The notes beneath the pieces are model-generated. The model was given only the letters and a program-made list of their open reading frames with translations. It did no database searches and was not told where the DNA came from. Both the position numbers and the translations under genes were made by a program. Positions 2,256-22,230 of a DNA stretch of 22,230 bases are shown here, one piece after another. The first letter of the stretch is position 1. Every line of letters starts with the position of its first letter. The stretch covers positions 1-22,230 of the IMG/VR virus record IMGVR_UViG_2713896776_000007. One strand, given 5' to 3'. Source of the DNA: a virus (taxonomy: Duplodnaviria; Heunggongvirae; Uroviricota; Caudoviricetes).

Positions 2256-2309
2256 GGTAGATCTCCCTGACAAAAGCAGGAATGATGCCATTTGCGCGTT
2301 ATTTCTGCA

Positions 2310-3832: not shown

Positions 3833-3852
3833 ATAAATCACCCTGAATAAAA

Positions 3853-4515: not shown

Positions 4516-4518
4516 GGA

Positions 4519-6567: not shown

Positions 6568-7112
6568 GCCTCCATCGCTTTATCAGGTTTGTCGGTGTTA
6601 CTGCCCTGACCGTTCTCTCTGTGACGATGCCCGTTATAGGCAAGCCGCATCGCTGACATGGTAGTGCCGCCGGAGTCGCACAGGTCTTTCACCTGTCCGG
6701 TCACTTCAAGGTCCATTTCAAAACGTGCTCTGGGCGCATTGCGAAACGTGATCGTTTTACCTGCACCGTCCACCACGATCCCCTCCCGGGTCAGCGTCAC
6801 AGACTGCCCCTGATCGTCATAGACAGCCACCTCACCCGTCTGCAGCCCTTTCAGGCGGTAGCGCCGGTCCGACACCGTAACAACCACCGCATGAGAACGG
6901 TCGCCATCCGGAAACAACACCACCGCTTCCGCACCGCTGTTTGCCCTTGCGGTAAAACCGTAGGGTTCAAGATGTTCAACCCCGGCTTTGGGTTCACCGG
7001 CAATCAGGGACACATCCACGGTCTGACATTTCGTGGCGGCGCTGATACTTTTCACCACTGCCCGCCCAATCAGGCCGAGAAGTTGTCGCTGCATGGCTTC
7101 AATCGTCCTCAT
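6564..7112 (-). CDS. Mu gp45-like baseplate assembly/spike protein
   Basis: It is 182 aa with an LEPYGFTARANSGAEAVVLFPDGDRSHAVVV motif typical of the Mu Gp45 / gpV family. Its start overlaps the upstream stop by 1 nt. Confidence 0.8.
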   Translation of the reverse strand: MRTIEAMQRQLLGLIGRAVVKSISAATKCQTVDVSLIAGEPKAGVEHLEPYGFTARANSGAEAVVLFPDGDRSHAVVVTVSDRRYRLKGLQTGEVAVYDDQGQSVTLTREGIVVDGAGKTITFRNAPRARFEMDLEVTGQVKDLCDSGGTTMSAMRLAYNGHRHRENGQGSNTDKPDKAMEA

Positions 7113-8191: not shown

Positions 8192-9564
8192 TGCACTGGC
8201 ACCTTCAGAGGGATCACCGGCACAAAGCCGGGATGCGTAATGGCATTACGCCGGATAATGTCCGCGTCACGCGCCGCGTTATCAAACCAGGTCGCCGCCA
8301 GCACCAGCGCGGGTAAAACCTCATCCGGTGTGCGCTGAATGATCCGAGCAGACTGTTCAAGGCGCGTGTTGATATCCGCATTCAGATCTGCTTTCACCCG
8401 GCGCAGCGCCAGAAACAGCGCATCACTGGTTGTACGGGACAACTCCTTATCAATTGCCGTATTCAGTGTGTCGCGAATGTCGGTCAGTTCTTCCCACGTT
8501 GGCAGGTCAACCGTGTTTTTCACCGCCGGTGCATTGTTCAGTGCCGGATGCGTGACGGAAGGCCAGCCGGAGCTCTGCGCGGGTGTTGTTGACTGCCCCA
8601 CTGCGGCATTCTGCATCACCGCAGAAGTTGTTGGCGCAGGCAATCGGGTGACGGCATACGCCGCTTCGCTGATTGCGGTCGTACGAAGGATGCTGGCAAC
8701 CACGTTACGCTGCTGCGTCGCCGTGGCGGTGGTTTTACTGTCCGTTTTCCAGACGCCGCGCGGTTGCAGATCGCTGCCGAGGCTGACACCGGAAAGCGTT
8801 TTGATCATGGTGACCAGGTCGCTGGCGTTACCATAAAGGCGTTTCCCGGTACGCCACATTTTCTGCACCTGCTCAACGAAATTTTTTCCTGACGATGGCG
8901 GCGGCAGAAGTACCGAGATATCCCCCTGCAACAGCCTGGCAGCATCCGATACGGCAGAATCCACCACTTTCATCGCATCAGAAACATACCCCAGCATTGT
9001 GCTGGCATTACCGACGACGTCGTTCTGCACAAAATCCGCCACGCCATCGATACTGAAACCACTGAAACTGTCACTGATGCAGTCATCCAGTGCAGAACAG
9101 GATGACATCAGCGTCTGCGCCGTCGCCGCACCTGATGTGGGGTAAGAGAGTTCTCCCGCTTCGACAAACTTCAGGTCAAAGCGGACAATACGCCCTTCAC
9201 TTTTCGATGTGCTGACCCGAACTTCCCCGTCAACACAGACTTTCAGCTCACCGTATGTCGGATGGACAAGCGTGCCGGGACCGGGTTTATTCAGCGCATC
9301 AATCAGGCGATCGCGCTGGTCAAAGCAGTCATCTCCCACCACATAAGCCGTGATGGACGGGCGGAAAGTAACTTTTCCCAGATCTTCGGTATAGGGCTTG
9401 TCGCGGTTCGGGTATTCGTGTGTTTCCACACGGCGACCGGTTCCCGCACTTTCTTCTTCAACCTTAAACGATACGCCGCGAAATGACGCGTCCTGAAGTC
9501 TGTCACGCCAGCCTGAAGACGACGAAAGTAATGAAGGTCGGGTGGGAAATGAGGATAAATCCAT
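8188..9564 (-). CDS. DNA circularisation protein N (Mu gp43-like)
   Basis: The N-terminal motif ASFRGVSFKVEEESAGTGRRVETHEYPNRDKPYTEDLG is characteristic of the DNA_circ_N domain. It follows the tape measure gene as in Mu. Confidence 0.85.
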   Translation of the reverse strand: MDLSSFPTRPSLLSSSSGWRDRLQDASFRGVSFKVEEESAGTGRRVETHEYPNRDKPYTEDLGKVTFRPSITAYVVGDDCFDQRDRLIDALNKPGPGTLVHPTYGELKVCVDGEVRVSTSKSEGRIVRFDLKFVEAGELSYPTSGAATAQTLMSSCSALDDCISDSFSGFSIDGVADFVQNDVVGNASTMLGYVSDAMKVVDSAVSDAARLLQGDISVLLPPPSSGKNFVEQVQKMWRTGKRLYGNASDLVTMIKTLSGVSLGSDLQPRGVWKTDSKTTATATQQRNVVASILRTTAISEAAYAVTRLPAPTTSAVMQNAAVGQSTTPAQSSGWPSVTHPALNNAPAVKNTVDLPTWEELTDIRDTLNTAIDKELSRTTSDALFLALRRVKADLNADINTRLEQSARIIQRTPDEVLPALVLAATWFDNAARDADIIRRNAITHPGFVPVIPLKVPVQ

Positions 9565-9588
9565 AGACTGACCTCAAAAAGGACTGCG

Positions 9589-11496
9589 TTATCGTGGAAA
9601 ACGAAAAGGGGAATACCCCACATCGTGCGTGATTTTCATCAGGGGATCGGCTTTGTCCGGTACATCAATTATCTTCATACCTGGCGGAGCATTCTCGAAC
9701 GTGACTTTCAGCTCGCTGTGCTGTGTCATGGAAGAAGATGGATTCAACAGCGGAACATTGGGTTTGTACTGACTCAGGCTGGCCTGATATTGCTCGTACT
9801 CTTTACGATCAAAAAAAGGCGTCCAGTCTGAAGCCAGAAACAGCCCTTTATTATCCAGCCAGTTAACCGTATCTTCAGGAACAACACTTTCCAGAGTATC
9901 TTTAACCGGCTCATACATCAGGGTTCCCAGAAAACCATATACCCCGGCCTTCCCGATAAAGCCGCGGCCTTTCCCCATCAATCCCGTTTCTGCCGATACC
10001 TTCCCCAGCGTACGCATCTCTCTGGTCACTGCGGTAATGGATTTGGTAACGTCAGCAACCCATTTGGTTGCCATAAACAGGGCAATCGCTTTCAGAACAG
10101 TTTCCCATCCCCCCATCGCCTGCGCCGTTTCATCCATCACGTGCCAGACTTTTTTTATGACAGGACCTACGGTTTCCCAGTTATCAATAATGAGGTAAGC
10201 GCCACCAACCAGAAGAGCAATCAGCCCCTTAGCAGGCGTCATATTCATCACACCGCCGAGAACTTTCATAATTCTGGACAAAGAGCCTGCAGCGGCTCCC
10301 ACCGTCAGTAAGGCCAGACCGATTTTAGCAATGGTCTTAACGAGCTCCGGGTTTTCACGGACAAACGTTCTCACTTCCTCAAGGAGCGGTTTTACCGCTT
10401 CAAGACCATCATTAACCTCAGGAAGAAACGTTTCCCCCAGCGTGGAAGAAATGGCATCAAGTTGATTTTGCAGAAGTAAAAGCTGGTTTTCCGTCGTCGC
10501 TGCCCTCGAAGCATATTCCTTCTGCATCGAACTGCCATACTGCTGGGAATCCGCAACCCGCCTGAAGTTGGTACGCAACAAATCAAGGTTAGTCAGCAGA
10601 GGTGCTATCGCGCCCAGAGACTCTTTCCCGAACAGGGCATTCAGCACAGCTGCCCGTTTTTCTTTAGGCACTTTAGCCATCGCATCCAGTACAGATAGCA
10701 TGGTGCCCCGGGCATCTTTCTGCATATCAGCAGCTAATTTCTTCGGATTGATCCGCAGAAAACGCAATGCCTGTTTCTGCGATTTTGTCGCAGAATTTCC
10801 CGCGGTCAGGGAAAGCATGAAGTTCTTGATCCCTGTGGCGGCAATTTCTGACTCCACGCCCATCCCGGCAATGGTTGCCCCCATTGCCGCGATTTCGCCG
10901 GAAGCCACACCTGCAACACCACCTAAAGGACCAATACGCGTAACAATATCGGAGATTTTCTTCGCGTTCGCCGGGCCGGTATTACCAAGGTAGTTGATTT
11001 TGTCAGCCAGCCCGGCCACTTCATCCTGCGTCATATTAAACGCAGTACGCCACTGGGCCATCATCTGCCCGGACTCTTCAGCCGTGGTATCAAAGGCCAC
11101 GCCCATCTTCACCGCATCAGTGGCAAACTGCATCAGTTCATCACGTGCAATCCCGGCCTGACCACCCGCCGCCACGATTTCAGCGATACCTTCCGCCGAC
11201 ATAGGCAGTTCGGTTGACAGGTCACGCACCTGCTCCGTCATGGCCTTAAACGCATCCGGCGTATCCAGACCGTCCACCACTTTGCGGACATCAGCCATCT
11301 TCGATTCAAGGGTGATGGCTGATTTTACAGGGAGTACCAGTGCCCCCATTATTGCAGTACCCGCCCCGGCAGCGCCCAGAGCAAGGCTGGAGACTTCTTT
11401 CTGAAATCCCTTAAGCTGACGCTGCATACCTTTAAGCGGGCCGGATAGCCTGTCAACGGCGGTGATGATGGCTTTCAGCTGAAAATTATCAGCCAT
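9589..11496 (-). CDS. tail tape measure protein (635 aa), cognate to this tail module
   Basis: It has a TP901-type core (SAEGIAEIVAAGGQAGI...INYLGNTGPANAKKISD), hydrophobic central helices, and the expected position after the chaperone gene. Confidence 0.9.
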   Translation of the reverse strand: MADNFQLKAIITAVDRLSGPLKGMQRQLKGFQKEVSSLALGAAGAGTAIMGALVLPVKSAITLESKMADVRKVVDGLDTPDAFKAMTEQVRDLSTELPMSAEGIAEIVAAGGQAGIARDELMQFATDAVKMGVAFDTTAEESGQMMAQWRTAFNMTQDEVAGLADKINYLGNTGPANAKKISDIVTRIGPLGGVAGVASGEIAAMGATIAGMGVESEIAATGIKNFMLSLTAGNSATKSQKQALRFLRINPKKLAADMQKDARGTMLSVLDAMAKVPKEKRAAVLNALFGKESLGAIAPLLTNLDLLRTNFRRVADSQQYGSSMQKEYASRAATTENQLLLLQNQLDAISSTLGETFLPEVNDGLEAVKPLLEEVRTFVRENPELVKTIAKIGLALLTVGAAAGSLSRIMKVLGGVMNMTPAKGLIALLVGGAYLIIDNWETVGPVIKKVWHVMDETAQAMGGWETVLKAIALFMATKWVADVTKSITAVTREMRTLGKVSAETGLMGKGRGFIGKAGVYGFLGTLMYEPVKDTLESVVPEDTVNWLDNKGLFLASDWTPFFDRKEYEQYQASLSQYKPNVPLLNPSSSMTQHSELKVTFENAPPGMKIIDVPDKADPLMKITHDVGYSPFRFPR

Positions 11497-11904
11497 GCTT
11501 CATCTCCTCATTTATACGGACGGCCTCTGCCTCCAGATCAGCAAAGTGGGAAATAGCCGTCCGGCGAAGTTCAAGGGGGTTTAATTTCCAGAACCACGCG
11601 ACATTGTAGAATCGCTTCCGGAGGTCTCTTCCGTCTCCAAGCCGGTAAAAAAACGCATTACAATCATGCCTGCCTTGAAAATATCCAGCTTCGTCATCTG
11701 CGCTGCAGACGAGCGCGGGATCCCGGCCAGAAGCGGGATATATTTCAGCGCCACCTGACTGTCCATTTTCATACCACCATCAGGCGAAACAGAGAAAGGG
11801 AACCCCAGCGCCTCAATCTCGTCATACGTAGGCTCACGTATTTCCAGCACATGCAGTGTTTCTTTGTGGGCGATGATCGGTTTTTTAAGTACAAGCTCAA
11901 TCAC
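11489..11904 (-). CDS. tail assembly chaperone, predicted -1 frameshift product (G-T analogue)
   Basis: On the coding strand the zero frame reads CGT TTT TTT ACC. The -1 frame is open from the T7 run to a TGA that overlaps the tape-measure ATG (ATGGCTGA). It adds ...YRLGDGRDLRKRFYNVAWFWKLNPLELRRTAISHFADLEAEAVRINEEMKHG. Confidence 0.6.
11581..11904 (-). CDS. tail assembly chaperone (Mu gp41-like), zero-frame product
   Basis: It is 107 aa and sits between the tube and tape measure genes. It contains a slippery run near its 3' end. Confidence 0.7.
   Translation of the reverse strand: MIELVLKKPIIAHKETLHVLEIREPTYDEIEALGFPFSVSPDGGMKMDSQVALKYIPLLAGIPRSSAAQMTKLDIFKAGMIVMRFFTGLETEETSGSDSTMSRGSGN
11647..11653 (-). 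promoter_or_regulatory. slippery heptamer T TTT TTT for a programmed -1 frameshift
   Basis: There are seven A on the + strand, hence seven T on the coding strand, in X XXY YYZ register with the chaperone frame. Confidence 0.6.
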
Positions 11905-12257
11905 TGGTAATCCCCTTCTTCACCGTGGAACTCAAGATCGACCGTGCCTTCTTCGGCATTATGGTTCGCTTCGCCGTGCAGCCAGGCAGACGACAGTACA
12001 TAGACCTGACCGTTCGCCAGCTCGGCAGTGATGGTCATCTCATCAGACGAGGTGATTTTGCTCACCGGAAAATTCTTCGGCACCTTGAAGGTCCCTTTGA
12101 CATAAGGCGCACGGTGAGTTTCCTTGCGGTCCACTGAACCGTCCAGGCCGATGATGTCATCATTGACCGTCCTGTTCATGGGCACCTCAATGCCGCCGGT
12201 CAGCGATAGCTGCTGACCGTCAATTTTGAAATAACAGGTTCCCCCGATACGGGCCAT
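11901..12257 (-). CDS. tail tube protein (Mu M / gp40-like)
   Basis: It is 118 aa (MARIGGTCYFKIDGQQLSLTGG...) and directly follows the sheath gene with overlapping stop and start. Confidence 0.8.
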   Translation of the reverse strand: MARIGGTCYFKIDGQQLSLTGGIEVPMNRTVNDDIIGLDGSVDRKETHRAPYVKGTFKVPKNFPVSKITSSDEMTITAELANGQVYVLSSAWLHGEANHNAEEGTVDLEFHGEEGDYQ

Positions 12258-13753
12258 TATGCGGACTCCTCTGAATACTGAAGACGGAACTGGTTAACCA
12301 CGGCAAAGACACGCAACTGGTTAACATAGTCAGGCGGGAACAGCGTGTTCAGGCGGTTCGGATCGCTGGCATCACGCTCCACAACTAGGTACTGCTTAAA
12401 CAGTGCGTAGTTTTCCACGATCCCCGCACGCTCAAGCTGACGGTAGGTTGCCAGCAGTTCCCCTTTGATCACCGCCGGGGTGACAATCGCCTGACCGGGA
12501 CCAAAGCGGGTACCGTCACTGGCAAGCTTGTGACGCCCGTACTTACTGGTAATGACGGATTTCAGTTTGCGCAGTACATACGCGCTGGTATGCAGGGTCT
12601 CACTGTCTAGGTAGCTGTTATCCGCAACCCCGTAAGCGTTTTTCCTGTACGTGGTGACATCACGCTGAATGCGCAGTACCCCGCTTTCGACATACGCCGT
12701 TGCCACGCCATGAGACAGCAGGGTCTGTTGTTCGGTCATCGTGAACCGTTTCCCCTTCGGCGCAGGCAGCATACCCACCAGCTCACCGGTCTGCGTGGGA
12801 CGTGCCGGATCGTTGCGAATAAACACCGCTGCGCGGGCGGTACGGCTTGCCGCCAGTTCGTCGGCAGGCGTCTGGGTCTCTTTTTCGTACCCCGCCAGGG
12901 TAATGTGCTGCTGGTTAAACTGGTCACCTGCGGTCACCAGTTCTGACAGCGTGCCGATCTTTGCCGTATACACATGACCATACAGCTGACGCGCATAGCT
13001 CCAGCGACCGCTGGTATCGTTCATCTCGGTCACCAGCGTGTTAACGGAGGCCGTGTCGTTGAACGGCAGGCCGATATAATCAAACGGCTCATCCGCCATT
13101 GCAGCCACCGCGCCGGTGAGAACCGGAGCACCCGTTCCGGCGGTACCCGTCGCCACGGCAATCTGTACGCCCGCTGGCAGCACTTCGCCCCCACCAAAGC
13201 CGTAGTAATTGAGGCTGACAGGAATTTCATTCCCGCAAAGCCCCTTATGACGCGCGGTCAGTGTGACCACGCCTGCCGAAGATGAAGCCGTAAACGGCAG
13301 GGCCGGAACGGCATTGATGGCATCTTTGATACTGCTGGCAATCGTCGTGACGTTATCGCCGTTGGTCACCGGAGCCTGCACGCGGGTACGTCCCACATAG
13401 ACATTCACCGTGCCGGTTTCGGTTGCCGCCCCGGTCACCGTCAGCGTAACCGTTGCCGCCGCGCCTGTGGATTCAGGAACGGCAATCACATACAGCTCAC
13501 CAAACGGGTCGGTCTGGCGATAAGCCTCGACCATACGCGCCAGCTGACTTCCCGCACCACAAATCTGGCGTGCATAGTCTGCCGACGGCATCAGTACCAG
13601 ACTGTTGGCAACAATCTCTGCACCGTTATTGGCATGACCAATCAGCAGCGATGCTCCGCTGTCCTGTGCAGTATTCGCCGCCGAGTTATCCATTTCCGCA
13701 TAAAACAACGGAACCAGCGTATTCGACGGAATGGTGTTAAAGCTTATCGTCAT
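12257..13753 (-). CDS. contractile tail sheath protein (Mu L / gp39-like)
   Basis: It is 498 aa. Its size, position and sequence character match Mu-type sheath proteins. Confidence 0.85.
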   Translation of the reverse strand: MTISFNTIPSNTLVPLFYAEMDNSAANTAQDSGASLLIGHANNGAEIVANSLVLMPSADYARQICGAGSQLARMVEAYRQTDPFGELYVIAVPESTGAAATVTLTVTGAATETGTVNVYVGRTRVQAPVTNGDNVTTIASSIKDAINAVPALPFTASSSAGVVTLTARHKGLCGNEIPVSLNYYGFGGGEVLPAGVQIAVATGTAGTGAPVLTGAVAAMADEPFDYIGLPFNDTASVNTLVTEMNDTSGRWSYARQLYGHVYTAKIGTLSELVTAGDQFNQQHITLAGYEKETQTPADELAASRTARAAVFIRNDPARPTQTGELVGMLPAPKGKRFTMTEQQTLLSHGVATAYVESGVLRIQRDVTTYRKNAYGVADNSYLDSETLHTSAYVLRKLKSVITSKYGRHKLASDGTRFGPGQAIVTPAVIKGELLATYRQLERAGIVENYALFKQYLVVERDASDPNRLNTLFPPDYVNQLRVFAVVNQFRLQYSEESA

Positions 13754-13907
13754 CGGTATTCACCTTTTTATTCACGCGCCGGATATCACCCGCTGCTTCA
13801 CGGCGCAGCCAGTAGTTGTTCTCGTCAACATTTCGCCCTTCGGCGGGCAAAAGGTCGCCGCGGGCAGGGTCAGGAACTGACCGCCCTTTAACAGGTTTCA
13901 CAAACAT
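13737..13907 (-). CDS. DUF2635-like small tail-module protein (Mu gp38 position), not in the ORF track
   Basis: My manual translation is MFVKPVKGRSVPDPARGDLLPAEGRNVDENNYWLRREAAGDIRRVNKKVNTDDDKL (56 aa). The pattern VKP..G..V.DP....LP.EG..V....YW.RR...GD is the DUF2635 signature as I recall it. It overlaps the sheath start by 17 nt. Confidence 0.65.
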   Translation of the reverse strand: MFVKPVKGRSVPDPARGDLLPAEGRNVDENNYWLRREAAGDIRRVNKKVNTDDDKL

Positions 13908-13915
13908 GAAGATTC

Positions 13916-14476
13916 TCAGGAAGGAAGGGTTATTTCGGTGTGATGTTCGATATCGCCGTCAGGCCCGTTACCGGGATCGAGATAATCAACATCAATCGCC
14001 AGCGTTCGCAGTTCATCCAGACTGTTCAGGTCATCCTGCTGGCGGGTATCGTCTTCAGTCAGCTCGCTGATGACCGAAAAATCGAACTGATAAATCAGCT
14101 CATGACGATTCAGATCCAGCAGCGTGCCGCCGTCATAGGTAATCGGGTTACCGCACGCCTCCGGGTTCCAGCCCAGCAGAGCCTTAAAGAGCATCTGCCG
14201 GACATCGTCCACCACATCATACGAGGCAAACTGACCGCGCTCATCACGCCCGTTACTCAGTATGACAACCACGGAGAAACCCTCTTTCAGCTCCTGCCAG
14301 TAGTCGGTCTGGCTTTTGTTTTCTCCCGGAGAATCATCACCCGGTACAACATATGCCGCCGGGAGTTTCAGCTTTCCGACCTCCGGCAGATTTTTGAACT
14401 GGGCCGCGCCTGCAACCCGGTTTTCAAAATACGGACAGCGGGCACGCAGTGCAGCAATAACAGGCGTCAGTTTCAT
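13916..14476 (-). CDS. Mu gp37-like tail completion/terminator-region protein (DUF1834-like)
   Basis: It is 186 aa and lies upstream of DUF2635 and the sheath gene, as in Mu-type tail clusters. The family assignment is from memory of the general sequence character only. Confidence 0.6.
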   Translation of the reverse strand: MKLTPVIAALRARCPYFENRVAGAAQFKNLPEVGKLKLPAAYVVPGDDSPGENKSQTDYWQELKEGFSVVVILSNGRDERGQFASYDVVDDVRQMLFKALLGWNPEACGNPITYDGGTLLDLNRHELIYQFDFSVISELTEDDTRQQDDLNSLDELRTLAIDVDYLDPGNGPDGDIEHHTEITLPS

Positions 14477-14568
14477 CTGTGTCGTCGCTCCGGCTTCAGT
14501 GATTTACGCAATTCCCGCGCCAGAAAATAGCGTGTCCAGCTGCGGTTCTTTTCAAGAGTTTCCACCAT
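14473..14568 (-). pseudogene. 31-codon ORF, possibly the 3' remnant of a head-tail joining gene
   Basis: The ORF reads MVETLEKNRSWTRYFLARELRKSLKPERRHR and has an ATGA stop/start overlap with the gp37-like gene. The same frame stays open without an ATG up to about 14680. This suggests a truncated upstream gene at a mosaic joint. Confidence 0.3.
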
Positions 14569-14704
14569 GAAGTTATTACGTGGAGCCAGTCGCCAGCCGC
14601 TGCCACCGGATGCACCTGATCCACCGCGCGATAAATAAGCCGCAATCCGTGAGATAAATGGACACGGTGCGGCTTTTCAGATACTGCAAAGGAATTACAA
14701 ATTA

Positions 14705-17182
14705 TCAGTCGTAAGCAACCCGGCGCTTACGGGCAAGAATAGCTTCCAGCGCTCTTTCAATCTCAGGAATGGACAGCTTAAGCGCATTCGCTACATCCGG
14801 TGCTGGTGACTTGTTCTTGCCATCAATATAGATATGGTTAATGACGTTAATCCCTGCACCTGCCGGTGAATGTGAATCCCGGCCTCTGGATAAGGTAAGG
14901 TCGCCGCGCATATAGCGCTCTAATACGGGTGGTACTTTCGGTACATCCGGCACCATCATATCAGCCAGCCGCGAGGAGGCTTTTAGCGCCAGCGATGCAG
15001 ACTGACCGATACCAATCGCCGCCCCTTCTGCGATGTTTGAACCGAAGCCCATAAAGACCCGGCTTGGCGAGTGAATCCCCAGCTTTTCCTTGAACCACCC
15101 GCCGACGCTATCGCCCATCTCGGTAACGGTATTCTTGAGCGACTCCCACTTATTTTTGATACCGTTCACCAGTCCGTCAATCAGGTGACCGCCAAACTCG
15201 GTAAACTGGCCGGGAAGGTCGATGTTAAACCACTTCATGACCCCCGCAAACGCCTTGTAGAACAGCCCCAGCGGCGACCAGTTCAGGATTAGCTTACTGA
15301 CGCCGAGAACGCCGCCGTTAAAGGCCGTTTTGACTTCCTCCCATCGCTGTGAGAACCATCGACTTATTGCCCCCCAGTTGCGGTATATCAGGTATGCGCC
15401 CCCGGCGATGACGGTTATCGCAATGCCTAAGGGATTCATCATCAGCGCCCGGCCAAACCAGAGAAATGCTTTTGCAACGACCATGACGCCCCTGAACAGC
15501 CCACCTGCCAGCGCTTTACCCAGCGTCCCGGCTCCCTTCGCTACGGTACTGAATCCAGTAGCCAGCCAGCGCAACCTGCCACCAACACCAAGGGCGGCTT
15601 TCAGCTTCACCCAATGAGTGTGTACCAGAACAGCGTTTTTCCACATCCCAACAAAAGGTGAAAAAAGCAGATTAAGGCCGAGCTTCAGACCGACAGTGGC
15701 AATTTTCAGCCCCAGCAGTGCGCCCACGGTTTTTGCCACACCCTGAACAAGCGTCGGATGTTGCTCTATCCAGAGCTTCGTTGTCTGAATCATCGGGATT
15801 AATTGCCGGGTTGCTGACACAAATGTAGGGGACAACTGATCGCCGAGAGAGATAGATAAATCACGGGTGTTTATCATCAGGGCTTTGGTTGCTTCCAGCG
15901 GCGATTTGAGCCTTTCAGCATAGGATGCCGCCAGCAGGTCATTATCAGCCGCTTTAAGTGCACCAGAGCGGATTGCCCTGTATTTATCCATGTTAGCAAG
16001 CATAGGGCGAACGAACGCCATTACCTGCATATCGGTGAACATCTCACCCAGCCCAAAGTTTTTAGCCAGACTTTGTAAGGCCTCGTCCCGCGCTTTGTTG
16101 TCCTGAATTTGCATTGCGGATTTAAAACCAGCCAGAGCTTTCGGACTCGTTGCATTAAGGTATCTTTGGGTTACATCCAGCATACCTTCAATGGGGGAAA
16201 CTCCGGCTGCTTTATAATTCGCAAGAGACCCCATCAGGTCGATACCTAAATCGGCAAATCGCTTCTGCGTATCAGGCGCAAAAATCTTGGTGAGGAAGTT
16301 CCTGAAATTGTTTGCAGTCTCATCCGGTGAACCTGAACCAATCATAGCGACCTGCAAACTGGCCCCAATCTCCGCCACTGCATCCTTACCGTCTGCAATA
16401 CCCTGCATCATCGGCGCAAGCGACTGAATCCATTTCACCTGGTCAGGGATTTCAAAAGACCCCTGGTCACCTGCGTAGGCCATGATGTTCTGTACCGCGC
16501 CAAATTCTTTTGCGCTGCCTTTCAGCGAGTTTTGCCACACCGCCGCAACCTTTGCCCATTCCGTTCCTGCGGTACGGGTTGCCGTGGCTGCACGGGCGAT
16601 ATTCGGCATGTAGTTGCCAATATCTGAAAGCCCGTCAATGTTATCGCTGATAAGTGAACCAACGGCGTCCTGCATATCGCTCTGATACTGGTTGTATTTG
16701 AGCGACCACCCTTTGATTTGCTCTCCCAGAGTCTTACGGGTTTTATCGTCATATTTCGCTGTGATTGACATATCAATCATTTTATCTTCAAACGATGCCG
16801 ACTGTTCTATAGCCGGGGACACAAGACTGTAAGCAGCCCTGACTTGTGCATACGCCTCTACTCCCTGACCGTAGAGCGCCATGCGGTTAGATTTCAGGGC
16901 GTCAGAAGTGGCAGACGCTGCCGACAGGCGGGACTGCTGGCGGTTAAGCTGTTCCAGCGTTCTGCCGACCCGTTGCAGGTCATTGTTCAGGCGCGAGGCT
17001 ACGCCCGAACCAACCTGACCGTAACGCTGCATGGCGCGTGACAGGCTGCTTTGCTGCTCCGTCAGTCGGCGTGAGGTGTCGCCGAGAGAATCCAGAGTAC
17101 GCCGGGTACTGCTCATCGCGGAACGAAAACTGCTCCCGACAATGCCGCCAATCATCACGCCAACAGAAAAATTATTGCTCAT
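14705..17182 (-). CDS. second tape-measure-like protein (825 aa), out of normal tail-gene context
   Basis: It has a TP901-type core region, long predicted helices and hydrophobic glycine-rich central segments. Near the C-terminus is the IHSPSRVF motif, which is common in tape measure proteins. GGAG lies 6 nt upstream of the ATG. Confidence 0.8.
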   Translation of the reverse strand: MSNNFSVGVMIGGIVGSSFRSAMSSTRRTLDSLGDTSRRLTEQQSSLSRAMQRYGQVGSGVASRLNNDLQRVGRTLEQLNRQQSRLSAASATSDALKSNRMALYGQGVEAYAQVRAAYSLVSPAIEQSASFEDKMIDMSITAKYDDKTRKTLGEQIKGWSLKYNQYQSDMQDAVGSLISDNIDGLSDIGNYMPNIARAATATRTAGTEWAKVAAVWQNSLKGSAKEFGAVQNIMAYAGDQGSFEIPDQVKWIQSLAPMMQGIADGKDAVAEIGASLQVAMIGSGSPDETANNFRNFLTKIFAPDTQKRFADLGIDLMGSLANYKAAGVSPIEGMLDVTQRYLNATSPKALAGFKSAMQIQDNKARDEALQSLAKNFGLGEMFTDMQVMAFVRPMLANMDKYRAIRSGALKAADNDLLAASYAERLKSPLEATKALMINTRDLSISLGDQLSPTFVSATRQLIPMIQTTKLWIEQHPTLVQGVAKTVGALLGLKIATVGLKLGLNLLFSPFVGMWKNAVLVHTHWVKLKAALGVGGRLRWLATGFSTVAKGAGTLGKALAGGLFRGVMVVAKAFLWFGRALMMNPLGIAITVIAGGAYLIYRNWGAISRWFSQRWEEVKTAFNGGVLGVSKLILNWSPLGLFYKAFAGVMKWFNIDLPGQFTEFGGHLIDGLVNGIKNKWESLKNTVTEMGDSVGGWFKEKLGIHSPSRVFMGFGSNIAEGAAIGIGQSASLALKASSRLADMMVPDVPKVPPVLERYMRGDLTLSRGRDSHSPAGAGINVINHIYIDGKNKSPAPDVANALKLSIPEIERALEAILARKRRVAYD

Positions 17183-17214
17183 GGTTCACTCCGGTAATGA
17201 GTGGTTCGGTGGCG

Positions 17215-17808
17215 TCATTCGGTCAGGGACAGGCCGCTGATTCCGGTAATCCCGGCAATTTCCTCGCTGACAGCCATCAGTTCACTTTCAAGCCCGGTAC
17301 GTTCGCTGACCAGCGCCGCAACGGTCTTACGGCGTTCTGCCAGTGACGGAAGTTTGTCATTGCCCCACACCACGCTTTTATCCTTCTTAAGCGCTTCGGT
17401 CAGGCGGGTGGCGACCACATCCGGGAAGAAAAAGCAGAGCTTGCGCATAACCGCCATCCCGGTATCAGCCGGGGAGATGTTTCCACCCAACCCCACCAGA
17501 CGGAACAGGCCGGAAATATCGCCGCTCTCATTCTCCAGATTGCCCCAGCGTTCGGCGTTCCCTTCACTGCCGGAACTGTTGCAGAGGACACGCTTGAATG
17601 ACTGATATTCTTCCTGCCCGAATCGCTCAATATATTCAGGAATGAAAGAACAGTAATCATTAAGCGATAAAGGCATATCCTGTAATGTGGTTATTTCGCC
17701 GTTAATTTCACTAATGCGGCGAGAGAGTTTTTCTTTCTGCTCATTCAGGGAGGCAAGATTATTTTTAACGGCGTTCAGTGCTTCGATAAGGGAAATAACT
17801 GGTTTCAT
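17215..17808 (-). CDS. hypothetical protein with coiled-coil ends (197 aa)
   Basis: It is a clean ORF whose start is 1 nt from the upstream stop. It is heptad-like at the N-terminus (LNAVKNNLASLNEQKEKLSRRISEINGEITTLQ) and at the C-terminus. I recognise no family, but a scaffold-like role is conceivable. Confidence 0.45.
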   Translation of the reverse strand: MKPVISLIEALNAVKNNLASLNEQKEKLSRRISEINGEITTLQDMPLSLNDYCSFIPEYIERFGQEEYQSFKRVLCNSSGSEGNAERWGNLENESGDISGLFRLVGLGGNISPADTGMAVMRKLCFFFPDVVATRLTEALKKDKSVVWGNDKLPSLAERRKTVAALVSERTGLESELMAVSEEIAGITGISGLSLTE

Positions 17809-17809
17809 T

Positions 17810-18424
17810 TTAATAACTCCAGATAAAAGGCGTGGTGAGTGTGAGTGCTTCGGAATAGGAGACGTTACAGGCTTCGCTTACATCCTTTATTAAAAGGTGC
17901 TGCGCTGCTCTCTGGCTGTCAGCTATGCCGTCGAACTCTGAGAAATAAACGTGTGATTCATTGTGACCAAAACAGACCGGGTAAGCGCTTTCCATAAATT
18001 CCACCTGCTCCAGCCCTTTAACGGCTGGCGGCTGTGAGCCGAGAAAACCGATATGGCGTAGATACCAAGCTCCGGTGCCTGCCGGGTTGCTGGCCTCGCC
18101 GGGCTTATAGAATGACGCAGATACTTTCCTGTAACGCCCTGAGCGCACCAGCCCCAGCAGGGTATCATCCGGTTTTACCAGTGCGAAAAGCCTGCCGTTC
18201 TTGCTTATCAGTCCGGTGGTTTCGCCATAGGCCGGGCTGTTACTGGCCGGATGCCCCAGACACAGCGGCGCACCGTAACCCGCGCTGCGATAGCCGTTAT
18301 AGGCCGCTGCCATGTTGTCGATATCCTCGTCGGAAAAGCTGATTTCCTGTCCCGCCATCGCGGTATGCGTTCCCGCCCGGAATATCTCAATCGTTTTCCA
18401 GTTGCCCAAATTAAGATTTGTCAT
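17810..18424 (-). CDS. GPO / Mu-I-like capsid protease-scaffold N-terminal domain protein (204 aa)
   Basis: The pattern W..IEIFRAG.HT...G.EISFSDEDIDNMAAAY........APLCLGH......AYGE...L...GRLFA.V.P.D.L..LV..G.Y..VSASFY...YL.H.GFLG..PPAVKGL..V.F parallels the P2 gpO and Mu I N-terminal domains as I recall them. This is remote similarity only. Confidence 0.5.
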   Translation of the reverse strand: MTNLNLGNWKTIEIFRAGTHTAMAGQEISFSDEDIDNMAAAYNGYRSAGYGAPLCLGHPASNSPAYGETTGLISKNGRLFALVKPDDTLLGLVRSGRYRKVSASFYKPGEASNPAGTGAWYLRHIGFLGSQPPAVKGLEQVEFMESAYPVCFGHNESHVYFSEFDGIADSQRAAQHLLIKDVSEACNVSYSEALTLTTPFIWSY

Positions 18425-18466
18425 TTACCTGTTCTCGGTTGTGATGTGTAAACAGTGCTTTGCTGC

Positions 18467-18823
18467 TTAGTGTCTGGCAGCGCTATCTTTCAGGCTGTTT
18501 CTGTATTCACGGCGTTTTTGGGCGATAATGTTGTAAATCCATTGCAGGGAATAGCCGTATTTTTTCGCTATTTCAGCGATGGGAATACCTTCATTAAAGT
18601 CTGCAAAAACCAGATCATATTTCTCTTCATTCTGGTCTTTTGTTCCTTTTGGGAAGTAAAGGTTAAGCCCGCCGTATACATCTGACAGATACGCCATGAT
18701 GTCTACAGCGATAGATTCAGACTGACGTTTATCGACACCGTACATGACAAGGCGGCAGGAAATGTGCGTAGCCATATCACTAAGCACTTCGGCAGATTGA
18801 CGCATTTTTTGTTTGTTGGTCAT
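18467..18823 (-). CDS. Mor/C-family transcriptional activator
   Basis: The C-terminal HTH (EGIPIAEIAKKYGYSLQWIYNIIAQKRRE) and the length (118 aa from the ATG at 18821-18823) are typical of the Mu Mor/C family. Confidence 0.8.
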   Translation of the reverse strand: MTNKQKMRQSAEVLSDMATHISCRLVMYGVDKRQSESIAVDIMAYLSDVYGGLNLYFPKGTKDQNEEKYDLVFADFNEGIPIAEIAKKYGYSLQWIYNIIAQKRREYRNSLKDSAARH

Positions 18824-19022
18824 GACTATCACCCGTTGCAATATCAGTAATTCAGTCAGAAAAGGCTTTATAAAGCTTTACAGCGTGCGACTGGCGGTAA
18901 AGGCGAACCTTGACCGCAGCAAACCAGCCTGACGGCTTAGAAAGCGTTACAGCACCTTGTTAAAGTCAGTTAATAATATCGGGTGTGGGCGGGGATGTTT
19001 TTTAATGTACTTTAGATATGAA

Positions 19023-19046
19023 GAAGCCCCTCAGAGGAGGGGCTTC
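19023..19046 (-). terminator. hairpin terminator after the DUF3077-like gene
   Basis: It has a perfect 10-bp GC-rich stem (gaagcccctc / gaggggcttc) and a 4-nt loop, 17 nt after the stop. The downstream U-tract is weak (UUCAUAUCU). Confidence 0.5.
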
Positions 19047-19062
19047 GCGGGATTACGCCAGA

Positions 19063-19353
19063 TTATTGAGGCCGTCTGTCTTTCCTCAATCCATCAAGTA
19101 GCGCCATTGCATCAGTAACCAGTATGCCAGCAGCATCCGTAACCATAGAAACATCAGAGGATGCACATGATTTATCCGTACCTAATGTAGACGCAAAATC
19201 AAGTAGCTTACGAACTGCATCAAGTCGGTAGGTGGCAGAGTCGTAAATTAACTCCTGATTAGCATCAGTCTTTAAAAACATAATATCATCAGAGGCACCT
19301 TGTGAAAATGACGGCATCGCACGGAAAGTATTTTGAGTTTCAGCCTGTTTCAT
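19063..19353 (-). CDS. hypothetical protein (96 aa, possibly DUF3077-like)
   Basis: It has an ATGA overlap with the upstream gene. It is acidic and helical. The family guess is weak. Confidence 0.45.
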   Translation of the reverse strand: MKQAETQNTFRAMPSFSQGASDDIMFLKTDANQELIYDSATYRLDAVRKLLDFASTLGTDKSCASSDVSMVTDAAGILVTDAMALLDGLRKDRRPQ

Positions 19354-20093
19354 TGTGCAGCCCTCCGGCTAATAGCGAATTTATTATAAACTTCATAACT
19401 GGCAGCATTCAGTCCGGGGTTGTATTTATCAGCCAGAGCACAGGCAATCATATGTTCAATAAATTTTGTTATTGCGTTAAGTTCGGTTTCGTCTGAATAA
19501 CGCAATGCCACTTTGAGTAACTCGCGGCAATATTGCTTTTTATTCTCTTCGATTTGGCCTGATTGTTTTATTCCTGCCTTTTTATCTAACTCGTCCTCAA
19601 CAGGCAAAGATGAGATATCCTCTTTATTGGTTAGCGTTCTTTCGCAAATAATATCTTCACCAGATTGAATTACGCGCTGCAACTCTCTGGCGCTCATGCG
19701 AAGAATATCATCAAGCGTGTGGTCGTTATATGCCCCACCACTGGCAAGGAGATCCAGTGTCACTTCATCCAGCCGGGCAAGCAGATTTAACTTCGTTTTG
19801 CCGATATCTGTTTTGGCAATTGCGGCTCGTGGTGTGTCACCGCCGAACACATGAGCGATTCGCATCGCTTTACGTGCATCGGGCAAGTTTATGCGCCATC
19901 TGTGAAGAAAGTTCGTAAACTCACCATGTTGCAGTTCCTCTTTACAGGCAAATATTTTCTTTCCCAAAGAAACCAAGCCTTCGGCCTCCGATGTCGTTTT
20001 AGCGTGAGAACTGTGAATCACGCCACTGACCACCGCAGATAAAACACTTTCTTGGTTTGTTCCAAATGAATCGTTAGACTTATCATTAGCCAT
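19350..20093 (-). CDS. DUF3102-like protein
   Basis: The segment LGKKIFACKEELQHGEFTNFLHRWRINLPDARKAMRIAHVF resembles the DUF3102 core (HGEW/F..WL.....S.R.A...M.LA). I preferred the ATG at 20091-20093 because AGGA lies 8 nt upstream. The ORF track extends to 20111. Confidence 0.55.
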   Translation of the reverse strand: MANDKSNDSFGTNQESVLSAVVSGVIHSSHAKTTSEAEGLVSLGKKIFACKEELQHGEFTNFLHRWRINLPDARKAMRIAHVFGGDTPRAAIAKTDIGKTKLNLLARLDEVTLDLLASGGAYNDHTLDDILRMSARELQRVIQSGEDIICERTLTNKEDISSLPVEDELDKKAGIKQSGQIEENKKQYCRELLKVALRYSDETELNAITKFIEHMIACALADKYNPGLNAASYEVYNKFAISRRAAQ

Positions 20094-20167
20094 GACTGTT
20101 ATCCTACGCATAACGGTTTACTGGTTAGGCCATAGCAAGTGCTCGCAACATTTGTTATGGCCGTTTC

Positions 20168-20231
20168 TCTAGACCTTTCCCTGTGTTAAGGTATAGACCT
20201 AATAAGCAAACACTAAGCTATAGGTCTATAC
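20168..20231. promoter_or_regulatory. operator-like repeats T(C/A)TAGACCT x3 in a divergent control region
   Basis: The three copies are tctagacct (20168-20176), tatagacct (20192-20200) and an inverted aggtctata (20222-20230). The last two are part of a perfect 10-bp inverted repeat (gtatagacct-N21-aggtctatac). That repeat brackets a TAATAA -10-like hexamer (20201-20206) and abuts the ATG at 20232. Confidence 0.5.
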
Positions 20232-20423
20232 ATGTCAACTATCTTGCGAGATAAAAGCCCTAAAGGGGCAGGTAAAGCCCCGATGTTCAATGTCAGGATT
20301 TCACCAGAACTGAAAGAACAGTTTGAATCACAAGCAAAAAAAGAAGGTGTTAGCTTAGGGAATTGGCTCAAAGAGCTTGGGAGAGCAGAGCTTAAGCGCA
20401 ACGGAATTGACCCGAAGGCTTAA
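20232..20423 (+). CDS. ribbon-helix-helix (Arc/CopG/HicB-antitoxin-like) DNA-binding protein
   Basis: In the 63-aa product, FNVRISPELKEQFESQAKKEGVSLGNWLKELGRAEL fits the RHH beta-alpha-alpha pattern. Confidence 0.65.
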   Translation: MSTILRDKSPKGAGKAPMFNVRISPELKEQFESQAKKEGVSLGNWLKELGRAELKRNGIDPKA

Positions 20424-20459
20424 ATTTAGTTACTAAAAAACAATAGCTTAAGGTATTTT

Positions 20460-20545
20460 TGATAAATATTTATCACTTGTATTCGACATCATAGTGATAA
20501 ATATTTATCATTCACAGCGCATCGGCACATGATAAAATGTTATCA
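20460..20545. promoter_or_regulatory. three 16-bp palindromic operators at 35-bp spacing
   Basis: TGATAAATATTTATCA occurs at 20460-20475 and identically at 20495-20510. A degenerate copy, TGATAAAATGTTATCA, lies at 20530-20545. Confidence 0.6.
20511..20538 (+). promoter_or_regulatory. putative sigma70 promoter for the 114-aa gene
   Basis: The elements are TTCACA-16 nt-TAAAAT. The -10 lies inside the third operator. GAGG lies 7 nt before the ATG at 20561. Confidence 0.4.
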
Positions 20546-20560
20546 CTTTGAGGCTAGTTT

Positions 20561-20905
20561 ATGCGTATACATGTTACTCTTAATGGCAAAAAAACAACCA
20601 TATCGATAGATGACTTGCTCTTCGACTATCTTGGTGCATGGTTGGTTGAACAAAGACCCAAACTGCACTCAAAACCTAAAGAGCAGTATGACCAAGCTAA
20701 GTCTCAGATTCGTAAATATGTGCAAGATAACGCAGAAAAACTCCCATCTAAGAACCTTAGCCAGCACATACAAAATGCCATTTTAGAAATAATTATGCCG
20801 AAAGAATTAAATGAAATTCTAGAGAAAAGAGGGCCAAGATATGAGAAGAAAAAGTTTGATGTGACCACAATTTTCCCTGATTGGGAAAATTATCTGAGAA
20901 AGTAA
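20561..20905 (+). CDS. RHH_4-like (PF13467-type) ribbon-helix-helix domain protein
   Basis: IHVTLNGKKTTISIDDLLFDYLGAWL....NLSQHIQNAILEI parallels the RHH_4 pattern (v.l.G..TSisLE..FW..L...A...NLSSaiR..vL) as I recall it. Confidence 0.5.
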   Translation: MRIHVTLNGKKTTISIDDLLFDYLGAWLVEQRPKLHSKPKEQYDQAKSQIRKYVQDNAEKLPSKNLSQHIQNAILEIIMPKELNEILEKRGPRYEKKKFDVTTIFPDWENYLRK

Positions 20906-20924
20906 TTAAATCAATGGATTGTAT

Positions 20925-20944
20925 ACCGCTCAGCGCTGAGCGGT
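20925..20944 (+). terminator. palindromic hairpin after the 114-aa gene
   Basis: accgctcagcgctgagcggt is a perfect 20-bp palindrome 19 nt after the stop. The T-tract is poor (tctgtgg). Confidence 0.35.
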
Positions 20945-21157
20945 TCTGTGGCTCTAGATCTGCCAACGTTGGCAGATTTGCCAATACCGCATTTGATTGA
21001 TGGTATCGAATCGCAAATGTCCCAGCGCTGGGAATCATCCCCAAAGGCGCAGACATCTGCGCCTTTGAGAAGCACGGAACTAAAATCCGTTTCACTGTAT
21101 GACTGTATGGTATGAGGCTTTCAGATGCTTACTGAGGCTTAAATAAGCTAATGAAGT

Positions 21158-21186
21158 TTGCATCATCTGTTCCAAGTTAGTACACT
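21158..21186 (+). promoter_or_regulatory. putative sigma70 promoter of the antitoxin sRNA
   Basis: The elements are TTGCAT-17 nt-TACACT. The predicted start at about 21193-21194 coincides with the first base of the left inverted-repeat arm. Confidence 0.45.
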
Positions 21187-21193
21187 TATCCCT

Positions 21194-21226
21194 GTTAGTG
21201 GATGCGTGACGCGCTCTGGTTGAGGC
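21194..21226. repeat. left arm of a perfect 33-bp inverted repeat
   Basis: gttagtggatgcgtgacgcgctctggttgaggc is the exact reverse complement of 21444-21476. Confidence 0.95.
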
Positions 21227-21272
21227 TCATTACCTTGAACAGAGATTCATCACCTTAAGCACCCAAAGAAAA

Positions 21273-21302
21273 AAGCCTGACCTCACCAGTCGGGCTTTTT
21301 TT
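21273..21302 (+). terminator. rho-independent terminator
   Basis: The 9-bp stem is aagccugac / gucgggcuu with one G-U pair and a 7-nt loop. It is followed by a T7 run. An A6 run upstream could allow bidirectional use. Confidence 0.75.
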
Positions 21303-21324
21303 GTCCGTTATTTACTCCAGTCCT

Positions 21325-21352
21325 TTGAATACACTGCTGATGCCTTTATAAT
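21325..21352 (+). promoter_or_regulatory. strong sigma70-like promoter of the toxin mRNA
   Basis: The elements are TTGAAT-16 nt-TATAAT. The predicted start is at about G21359. Confidence 0.55.
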
Positions 21353-21443
21353 CACAGCGTTAGTGGGTGTCCCGTTCTGACACAACGCAGGCATGTGAAA
21401 CGTGTTCAAGCCCTGGCTGGATTACGGGTGGTGCCGCTCCAGT

Positions 21444-21476
21444 GCCTCAACCAGAGCGCGTCACGCATCCACTAAC
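21444..21476. repeat. right arm of the perfect 33-bp inverted repeat (predicted sRNA target in the toxin leader)
   Basis: gcctcaaccagagcgcgtcacgcatccactaac lies 73-105 nt upstream of the toxin ATG. Confidence 0.95.
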
Positions 21477-21548
21477 AATGCAACACCGTTAACCAGGCAG
21501 TGGAAGGGCTTTAATGGTGATGCCGCGCTCCTGTAGTGGAGCAAACGG

Positions 21549-21632
21549 ATGAAGGGATTTCTTCAAATCGCTGTCATCGCTCTTAAGGCAATTGTCGCCT
21601 TTATTGAGCTGATTCTGGCCTGCTTACCGTAA
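21549..21632 (+). CDS. 27-aa hydrophobic TisB/DinQ-like type I toxin candidate, not in the ORF track
   Basis: My manual translation is MKGFLQIAVIALKAIVAFIELILACLP. From memory, TisB is MNLVDIAILILKLIVAALQLLDAVLKYLK and DinQ is MIDKAIIVLGALIALLELIRFLLQLLN. GGAG lies 7 nt upstream of the ATG, and a strong hairpin follows the stop. Confidence 0.55.
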   Translation: MKGFLQIAVIALKAIVAFIELILACLP

Positions 21633-21651
21633 GCAACCGGGAAACGTAAGT

Positions 21652-21680
21652 AAGGCCACCGGCTCACCCCCGGTGGCCTT
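21652..21680 (+). terminator. hairpin terminator of the toxin mRNA
   Basis: It has a perfect 11-bp stem (aaggccaccgg / ccggtggcctt) and a 7-nt loop, 19 nt after the stop. The U-tract is weak. Confidence 0.55.
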
Positions 21681-21885
21681 TAACATTTTAAGTCTGCCTC
21701 GCCGCTCTACCGGCCATTCATTTTTGAAGCTGGCTGAGTGTTAAGGCTAAATTTAAGGTGGCACTGACGGCTTAAATTCCTGCGATATCCTGGCATGTCG
21801 TTATGATTAAAGCGCATTAGAAACAAATTTCATCGTTCTGATTAAACATGTTTACCTGACTATTCAAAGTAAGGTAAATCTCAAT

Positions 21886-22230
21886 ATGGCACGACCTCAG
21901 ACGGTTAATCAGTTACCCGACTCTATCAAGAAGAAACTGAATAAAAAGCTGACGGAAAGTTCATTCAGCGGCTACGTTCAGCTTACTGAGTGGTTAAACT
22001 CGTTGGGATACCCGGTTTCAAAATCATCAGTGCATCGCTATGCTGAACGTCGCCGCCTGTCACTTATAGCAGGGAGCGATACTCCCGGCGCAACAGCTAA
22101 CATTGTGGATACGAAACTTCGCTGTCTGGAGCTTGCCTCGCTCTCTTTAAAAACGGACGAGAAGTTGTCAGCAGATGAAGTAAAAAAATATGCTGAAAAT
22201 TTGATGGGGTGGCTTTACGACCAGAAATAA
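21886..22230 (+). CDS. Mu gp27-like protein (DUF3486, terminase small subunit candidate)
   Basis: QLPDSIKKKLNKKLTESSFSGYVQLTEWLNSLGYPVSKSSVHRYAERRR matches the DUF3486 N-terminal pattern (LP.E.r..Ld..L.d..fsGY..L.eWLne.G..iSKSAvHRYg). The stop is at the last bases of the window. At 114 aa it is short for the family. Confidence 0.75.
   Translation: MARPQTVNQLPDSIKKKLNKKLTESSFSGYVQLTEWLNSLGYPVSKSSVHRYAERRRLSLIAGSDTPGATANIVDTKLRCLELASLSLKTDEKLSADEVKKYAENLMGWLYDQK

Follow-up and report, generated by a model that had tools for sequence, protein, structure and literature searches.

The window analyzed here is a 22,230-nucleotide (nt) stretch of DNA, positions 1 to 22,230 of the Caudoviricetes record IMGVR_UViG_2713896776_000007. 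It contains the tail module of an SfV-like prophage and most of a 7,754-base-pair (bp) mobile element derived from phages of the Bcepmuvirus group. The element very probably split the neck gene orf8 of an otherwise complete prophage by clean DDE-type transposition, and it resembles a satellite of transposable phages of a kind not described before. Taken as a whole, a transposed Bcepmuvirus-derived element, possibly with a satellite life style, is probably the best explanation of this DNA.

The joint between the prophage and the element is sharp. DNA identity to phages SfI, SfII and SfV (97-98%) ends at position 14616, and foreign sequence starts at 14617. The window block 3389-14616 is 96-99% identical to hundreds of SfV-type E. 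coli prophages, and this identity likewise ends exactly at 14616. An earlier reading of the sequence alone (the original prediction) had already placed a joint here, and mapping the breakpoint against SfV-type relatives bears this out. The same reading described a 31-codon open reading frame (ORF) as the stump of a deleted gene whose frame is open to about position 14680. The ORF does lie within a gene stump, which corresponds to amino acids (aa) 122-168 of the SfV orf8 product. However, homology to orf8 stops at 14616, the open frame onward to about 14680 is element DNA unrelated to orf8, and the gene was split rather than deleted.

The far end of the element is found in another IMG/VR contig (L019). 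Over the element, this contig matches the window at 100% identity, and it reaches the far junction. This junction reads …TCTAATCA followed by TGCACC, and the near junction in the window reads TGCACC followed by TGATCC…. The 5' half of orf8 (aa 1-123) abuts the far end of the element in L019, and the two halves of the gene (aa 1-123 and aa 122-168) are on opposite sides of the insert. Upstream of the 5' half are genes for TerL, portal, S78 protease, HK97-type capsid, connector and head-completion proteins. Because both orf8 halves, the head module and the TGCACC duplication flank the 7,754-bp unit, nothing was deleted at the joint. The SfV-like prophage is evidently inactivated by the insertion in orf8, as a side effect.

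The first of three alternatives in the original prediction was a deletion or illegitimate recombination that fused a P2-like remnant (O'…T) to an SfV/Mu-type tail module, with loss of the head genes. The break in composition and identity at 14616/14617 and the truncated ORF would be expected from such an event. However, a perfect 6-bp duplication around a defined unit with inverted terminal repeats would not, and both orf8 halves and the full head module are present. Moreover, the relatives of the foreign DNA are BcepMu-like, not P2-like, and a near-identical unit occurs in an unrelated gene of E. coli AW1.7. Such a fusion is therefore very improbable. The second proposal was a head-less, tailocin-like particle gene cluster. 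As stated at the time, no portal or capsid gene lies between 14476 and the window end, and the window includes a complete contractile-tail module with no capsid gene. R-type tailocins have a contractile tail without head or packaging genes, whereas here the genes from TerL to head completion are directly beyond the element, and the tail block is 96-99% identical to those of SfV-type prophages and of phages SfI, SfII and SfV. A tailocin is extremely improbable. The third proposal, that the 825-aa protein was recruited for a function other than length determination, may hold.

The element is found as a 7,754-bp insert in E. coli AW1.7, flanked by the two halves of the lambdoid major capsid gene gpE. 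This copy differs from that in the window by 1 mismatch in 7,614 nt. The ends of the element are imperfect inverted repeats with TGAT…ATCA termini and repeated …GATAAAT motifs. Perfect 6-bp duplications flank such termini at nine independent insertions, seven in E. coli (AAGACA, GCCGAA, ACTCAT, GTAATT, TACATC, GTGAGG and TGCACC), one in Salmonella (GCATTT) and one in Yersinia (GCATCC). Targets include lambdoid gpE, a lambdoid M/L junction, SfV orf8, a glv phosphotransferase-system gene, ybhJ, intergenic DNA and a conjugative-element region. Among 5,426 complete E. coli genomes, 33 have the element, and beyond Escherichia its conservation extends to Salmonella, Yersinia, Citrobacter, Enterobacter and Dickeya. 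By all these signs it has moved repeatedly and recently.

Three of the seven independent E. coli insertions hit morphogenesis genes of other prophages, namely gpE in AW1.7 (L001), the M/L junction in enterotoxigenic E. coli (ETEC) L3_E36 (L014) and orf8 in the window, which could reflect target bias or survivorship. The element query also matched a second place in AW1.7 (NZ_CP073624.1), perhaps another copy of the element or a related one. A metagenomic contig of 7,799 nt (IMGVR_UViG_3300029165_000015, L020) consists of an arm-to-arm variant of the element with almost no flanking DNA, the form expected for an element with many sites or heterogeneous flanks. A variant in E. coli KCJ3K291 has a 1,026-aa tape measure (L005, 8081-11161), 87.6% identical over aa 1-740 and with another C-terminus. 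In its right arm (L005, 14194-15633), ORFs of 58, 67 and 318 aa without matches replace the HicB-type and gp27-N genes, and right arms of this type also occur in Salmonella and in one Yersinia copy.

The likely helpers of the element are Bcepmuvirus phages. The closest phage is Escherichia phage PhiKM, which has the canonical gene order of the group, and helper-family prophages are present in 640 of the 5,426 complete E. coli genomes. The prophage in E. coli EC958 (sequence type 131, ST131) comprises 37,048 bp between aroA and ycaL, with the same termini and a 6-bp duplication (GAAGAA). The element shares with BcepMu, phiE255, PhiKM and the EC958 prophage the TGAT…ATCA termini, the …GATAAAT repeats and the length of the duplication. 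It also has homologues of their Mor, DUF3102, gp27 and prohead protease proteins and of their tape measure (70% identical to that of EC958 and 32-34% to those of BcepMu and phiE255). The tape-measure-side arm matches the fibre/invertase-side end of the EC958 prophage at 48 of 60 nt, vs. 35 of 60 for the non-cognate end, and the gp27-side arm matches the Mor-side arm of the helper at 46 of 60. Non-cognate comparisons overall give 35-39 of 60, and both arms appear clearly to mimic the cognate ends of PhiKM/EC958-type phages.

In contrast to the 37-kb Bcepmuvirus phages, the element is 7.75 kb long. It has no DDE transposase, MuB-like ATPase, Gam, lysis genes, terminase, portal or capsid, and no sheath, tube, chaperones, baseplate or fibres. 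Its protease lacks the scaffold segment, and it carries a gene for a 197-aa protein. Relative to the helper, large deletions have occurred and the central gp27…Mor segment is inverted, so that DUF3102, a 96-aa ORF and Mor come to lie directly upstream of the genes for the protease, the 197-aa partner and the tape measure. Because the proteins of the element are only 29-70% identical to those of the helper, it is not a recent deletion derivative.

No gene or pseudogene for a transposase or MuB-like protein was detected in the 7,754 bp by Pfam and PHROG scans or by tblastn with all ORFs of the EC958 prophage. The only virion-type genes encode the protease domain, the tape measure and the N-terminal domain of gp27. 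An autonomous Bcepmuvirus has terminal repeats and a fixed 6-bp duplication, which the element shares, and also a transposase, a MuB-like ATPase and a complete set of head, tail and lysis genes, which it lacks. On this gene content it does not belong among the autonomous members. Because there is no transposase in the element, its mobilization must occur in trans.

The 825-aa protein of the element is a tape measure by profile comparison, as the original prediction had supposed. It exceeds the curated cut-offs of PF10145 (69.7 bits vs. 33.2) and TIGR01760 (63.9 vs. 28.8), matches phrog_28 (TMP, 5.7e-121) and phrog_5690 (1e-194), and aligns end to end (100% coverage) with BcepMu gp44 and phiE255 gp18. 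It is collinear with the 983-aa tape measure of EC958, with the 70% identity extending over aa 1-699. One tandem repeat of about 85 aa and further residues near the C-terminus are missing, and overall it has 158 aa fewer. Tape measure genes usually follow tube and chaperone genes and precede baseplate genes, whereas this one follows the 197-aa gene and precedes a terminal repeat.

The window indeed has two tape-measure-type genes on the same strand, both matching PF10145. The 635-aa protein belongs to the resident SfV-like tail module, outside the element. Its gene is flanked by genes for a chaperone-like protein (11581-11904) and for DNA circulation (8188-9564), in the canonical series of sheath, tube, chaperone, tape measure, DNA circulation and baseplate. 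The two proteins are 20% identical, and only in the PhageMin_Tail core. They are not two paralogues in one operon, as had been thought, because they belong to two different mobile elements that have the same direction by chance. The 825-aa gene and the two genes upstream of it were rightly judged foreign to the SfV/Mu-type tail module, and the foreign DNA is BcepMu-like.

The 204-aa protein has the fold of prohead maturation proteases (assemblin/T4 gp21). In it, a flexible linker joins a protease domain to a two-helix motif at the C-terminus, and it lacks the long scaffold segment that full-length homologues have. The protein is 41% identical to the N-terminal 140 aa of a 371-aa protein of PhiKM. 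Residues H58, S102 and H124 do not vary among 28 short homologues or among full-length ones, and the protease domain is predicted to be catalytically competent. The C-terminal motif, of about 35 aa, matches the extreme C-terminus of full-length protease-scaffolds, but the match is weak (E of about 4e-5 in an eight-sequence search). Pfam searches with the short protease family gave two faint Mu-like_Pro matches and nothing else. A loss of a catalytic Asp was considered (GTHTDMHG in PhiKM vs. GTHTAMAG in the element) and was rejected because this position also varies in full-length homologues. A 314-aa protease homologue (P0070) has three N-terminal tandem copies of 'VSYxEAL', a motif of the C-terminal tail of short proteases.

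The partner, the 197-aa protein encoded next to the protease, is predicted to be helical, in keeping with the coiled coil first suggested for it. In an AlphaFold2 model (predicted local distance difference test score 77.6), long N- and C-terminal helices would form an antiparallel coiled coil. A conserved insert contains the motifs MPLSLxDYCSFIPEY and CFFFPD. The gene was not found in 50,697 phage records searched, and among 1.84 billion representatives its family comprises about 140 clusters at 50% identity. In the contexts that were sampled, a Mor or capsid gene is next door. The possibility that the partner is the split-off scaffold half of a protease-scaffold was rejected, as it has no similarity to the C-terminal half of the 371-aa PhiKM protein.

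The Mor gene lies 42 nt upstream of the protease gene. The order Mor, 204-aa protein, 197-aa protein, tape measure (825-829 aa) and element end is kept in Escherichia, Salmonella and Yersinia and is degraded in Dickeya. The 825-, 204- and 197-aa genes are best read as the element's own Mor-linked operon, not as part of the SfV tail operon. Between copies, the tape measure has a ratio of nonsynonymous to synonymous substitution rates (dN/dS) of 0.08-0.12, the protease one of 0.05-0.14 and the partner one of 0.09-0.27. These comparisons, which together span 0.05-0.27, extend to synonymous divergence (dS) of up to about 1. All three genes are evidently under long-term purifying selection.

Short proteases of about 200 aa are also present in other small Mu-like elements, and the module of Mor, short protease and partner recurs. 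Salmonella enterica has an autonomous mini-Mu of 7.8 kb in identical copies at two loci (L015 and L016, 2586-10413), where CCATT and TTGTT are duplicated. Its products are a repressor, MuA, MuB, GemA, Mor, Gam and, as the only virion-type proteins, a short protease and a 201-aa partner. It resembles the element in its small size, its multiple insertion sites and the succession of Mor, short protease (49% identical) and partner (40%, hhalign 99.9%) at one end. It differs from the element in having its own transposase (MuA-like) and ATPase (MuB-like) as well as GemA, Gam and a repressor, in lacking a tape measure, and in its 5-bp duplications and terminal repeats (CAAATTAATCCGGA). A metagenomic element has the order MuA-MuB-…-Mor-short protease-175-aa ORF. 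In ENA contig ERZ1426514, Mor and the short protease are followed by a cement gene, two small ORFs and a Phage_cap_E major capsid gene, and then by host genes. In another contig (L023), a partner homologue directly follows a capsid gene. The latter two elements are possibly capsid-forming relatives.

The element might be a satellite of PhiKM/EC958-type Bcepmuvirus phages that is mobilized by the helper transposase, a proposal whose chances we put at about even. Under this proposal, the transposase and MuB-like ATPase of the helper would replicate the element by transposition, and expression of the protease-partner-tape measure operon would be turned on by the element's Mor. The short protease, with a catalytic domain and a putative capsid-targeting motif and no scaffold, would act with the partner to redirect assembly of the helper procapsid. 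The shorter tape measure would enter helper tails, and the protein with the gp27 N-terminal domain would act on packaging. Few virion or replication genes and helper-specific signals characterize a satellite, and the element has both, the signals being the arms and the homologues of the tape measure, protease, gp27 and Mor. Helper-dependent replication or packaging is hinted at only by the near-identical copy at another site in AW1.7 and by the 7,799-nt arm-to-arm contig. It is possible, with confidence a little short of even, that the element stands for an undescribed class of satellites that mimic the ends of transposable phages and reprogram the virion with a scaffold-less protease, a coiled-coil partner and a shorter tape measure, and whose relatives have their own MuA and MuB or a capsid gene.

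Several observations weigh against a satellite. The tape measure is cleanly deleted internally in a variant from ST131 and ETEC strains that still occupies at least two sites. Because this variant has moved, the tape measure is not needed for transposition or persistence. An 825-aa tape measure would need helper chaperones, as the element has none. The partner gave generic coiled-coil fold matches only, and no informative match of sequence or fold. Co-occurrence with a helper was looked at in one genome only, that of E. coli ZH063, which carries the element and a helper-type prophage. Finally, helper-dependent mobilization, packaging, small capsids and altered tails are predictions from sequence.

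In ZH063, the helper-type prophage is in ssuB (L022, 43442-46207), and its own tape measure is annotated as a pseudogene without the C-terminus. The co-resident element is the tape-measure-less variant.

Alternatively, the element could be a passive mini-Mu left over from a Bcepmuvirus prophage that decayed but retained both ends, and it would be moved in trans only on occasion. Its genes would then be kept for a benefit to the bacterium, such as interference with incoming Bcepmu-type phages or their exclusion, and not for transfer of the element in phage particles. This alternative is rather unlikely, although several observations agree with it. The element has no transposase, replication or packaging enzymes, and its tape-measure-less derivative persists in ST131 genomes with one common insertion site. 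It is plausible that helper assembly would be poisoned by a tape measure or protease acting as a dominant negative, and purifying selection fits any function. However, the proteins have no matches to known defense systems, and the inverted central segment puts Mor directly upstream of the protease, partner and tape measure in an order kept across genera. Other small Mu-like elements also contain the protease-partner module, some of them with a transposase or capsid gene of their own, and this points to particle hijacking rather than host defense. Moreover, interference with helpers is also typical of true satellites, so the passive mini-Mu and the satellite overlap.

Laboratory mini-Mu elements are deletion derivatives of Mu that retain the two ends and depend on a helper Mu for movement and packaging. 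The element resembles them in that it has both ends, has no transposase and is mobilized in trans. In contrast to them, it is natural, evolutionarily old and spread across genera, it has morphogenetic genes under selection, and its ends are of the BcepMu type with 6-bp duplications, whereas those of Mu are 5 bp. By analogy, it might work like a laboratory mini-Mu crossed with a capsid-remodeling satellite. Perhaps the closest parallels to the short protease are SaPI CpmB, which shares the capsid-binding C-terminus of the scaffold and competes with the 80alpha scaffold, and P4 Sid, which redirects capsid size. As CpmB does with its scaffold, the 204-aa protein shares a C-terminal motif with full-length protease-scaffolds, weak as that match is. 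Unlike in CpmB and Sid, the motif is fused to a protease domain predicted to be competent, and a redirection of capsid size is suggested by analogy.

The known phage satellite families are P4-like elements, PICI/SaPI, cfPICI, PLE and PICMI (PMC11389934). The element shares with them a small size, the absence of most virion genes, proteins related to capsid assembly, a small-terminase-like DNA-binding protein and, as its sequence suggests, dependence on one helper family. In contrast to them, it has no integrase, replicon or att site, moves by transposition with ends that mimic those of the helper, and has a complete gene for a tape measure. Among the satellite families in a 2024 review (PMC11389934), none is based on transposition. 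Literature searches, which covered open-access full texts, turned up no account of satellites of Mu-like or Bcepmu phages. To our knowledge, the described families (P4-like, PICI, cfPICI, PLE and PICMI) all use integrases and their own or hijacked replicons, and none includes a tape measure gene.

If the satellite proposal is true, riding on Mu-type transposition would be a new mechanism of satellite mobilization, and the first known for transposable phages. The element would also apparently be the first satellite that carries a tape measure. The proposal implies a helper-dependent rise in copy number, new junctions with 6-bp duplications, and small capsids or tails about 24 nm shorter, or both. 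A tape measure sets about 0.15 nm of tail length per residue, and the figure of about 24 nm is the product of this value and the 158 missing residues. Insertions of the element represent a mechanism of prophage decay, as at the three E. coli sites in prophage morphogenesis genes. More generally, genes that look like a 'second tape measure' or an 'orphan protease' within prophages may mark nested mobile elements, not odd operons. Features of the element and its surroundings are listed in Table 1.

Table 1. Features of the element and of the flanking prophage, in window positions
Feature	Position	Strand	Evidence or remark
Resident 635-aa tape measure of the SfV-like tail module, outside the element	9589..11496	-	PF10145, E 3.2e-43
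3' stump of SfV orf8 homologue (tail completion/Neck1), aa 122-168	14476..14616	-	98% identity; split by insertion
Target-site duplication, left copy, TGCACC (6 bp)	14611..14616	.	Identical hexamer directly after the other end of the element in L019
Non-autonomous Bcepmuvirus-derived transposable element, 7,754 bp	14617..22230	.	Window stops 140 bp short of the far end
Tape-measure-side terminal repeat arm	14617..14704	.	TGATCCACCGCGCGATAAATAAGCCGCAATCCGTGAGATAAATGG…; two …GATAAAT repeats, putative transposase-binding sites
825-aa tape measure	14705..17182	-	PF10145 PhageMin_Tail, E 4e-19; TIGR01760, 1.3e-17
197-aa coiled-coil partner	17215..17808	-	No family in Pfam, NCBIfam or PADLOC
204-aa short prohead protease	17810..18424	-	phrog_976 'head maturation protease', E 1.8e-45
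Mor-family transcription activator	18467..18841	-	PF08765, E 1.7e-21; phrog_532 'late transcriptional activator'
96-aa ORF and 253-aa DUF3102 protein, start of leftward operon	19063..20111	-	PF11300, E 3.2e-5; phrog_1748
Divergent genes: 63-aa HicB/ribbon-helix-helix-type DNA-binding protein, possible regulator, and 114-aa ORF	20232..20905	+	PF05534, E 3.5e-6
Conserved region without ORF of at least 60 aa	20906..21885 (980 nt)	.	96% identical between E. coli and Yersinia copies
114-aa protein, N-terminal DNA-binding part of Mu gp27/DUF3486, small-terminase-like	21886..22230	+	PF11985 Phage_Mu_Gp27, E 3.6e-14

The remaining genes of the element are at its gp27 side. The 96-aa ORF and the DUF3102 gene are counterparts of the pair that precedes the transposase in the helper, and the DUF3102 protein is 34% identical to that of EC958. 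The divergent genes are conserved in other copies of the element. The 63-aa protein also has weak Arc/ribbon-helix-helix matches, and the 114-aa ORF beside it has none. The gene for the gp27-like protein adjoins the far end of the element. Its match covers only positions 1-50 of the 173 in the profile, and in its first 56 aa the DUF3486 protein of EC958 is 45% identical to it. Scans of all element proteins for defense systems and against NCBIfam revealed nothing relevant.

The region without ORFs includes a perfect 34-bp inverted repeat (21193-21226 and 21444-21477) with a spacer of 217 nt, and a strong GC hairpin at 21652-21680. Inversion of the spacer between the repeats was considered and rejected because it has the same orientation in six copies. 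Searches of the element and of this region against Rfam gave no match at the gathering score, and the sub-threshold matches look like chance; a scan for promoters and terminators gave results not above shuffled expectation. As to function, the region may be a DNA site of the enhancer or pac type, or it may encode an RNA.

A second mosaic joint lies at the opposite end of the tail module of the prophage, as SfV-type identity begins at about position 1963. Genes for an RnlA toxin (763-1944) and an RnlB antitoxin (408-770) abut a truncated Gin/Pin-type invertase gene (1893-2291) that retains only the N-terminal resolvase domain. Next to it, the + strand carries an alternative tail-fibre tip and assembly gene (2282-3417), and facing these on the - strand are fibre and assembly genes (3389-4515). 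Region 2282-4515 is arranged like an invertible host-range segment, here with a truncated invertase.

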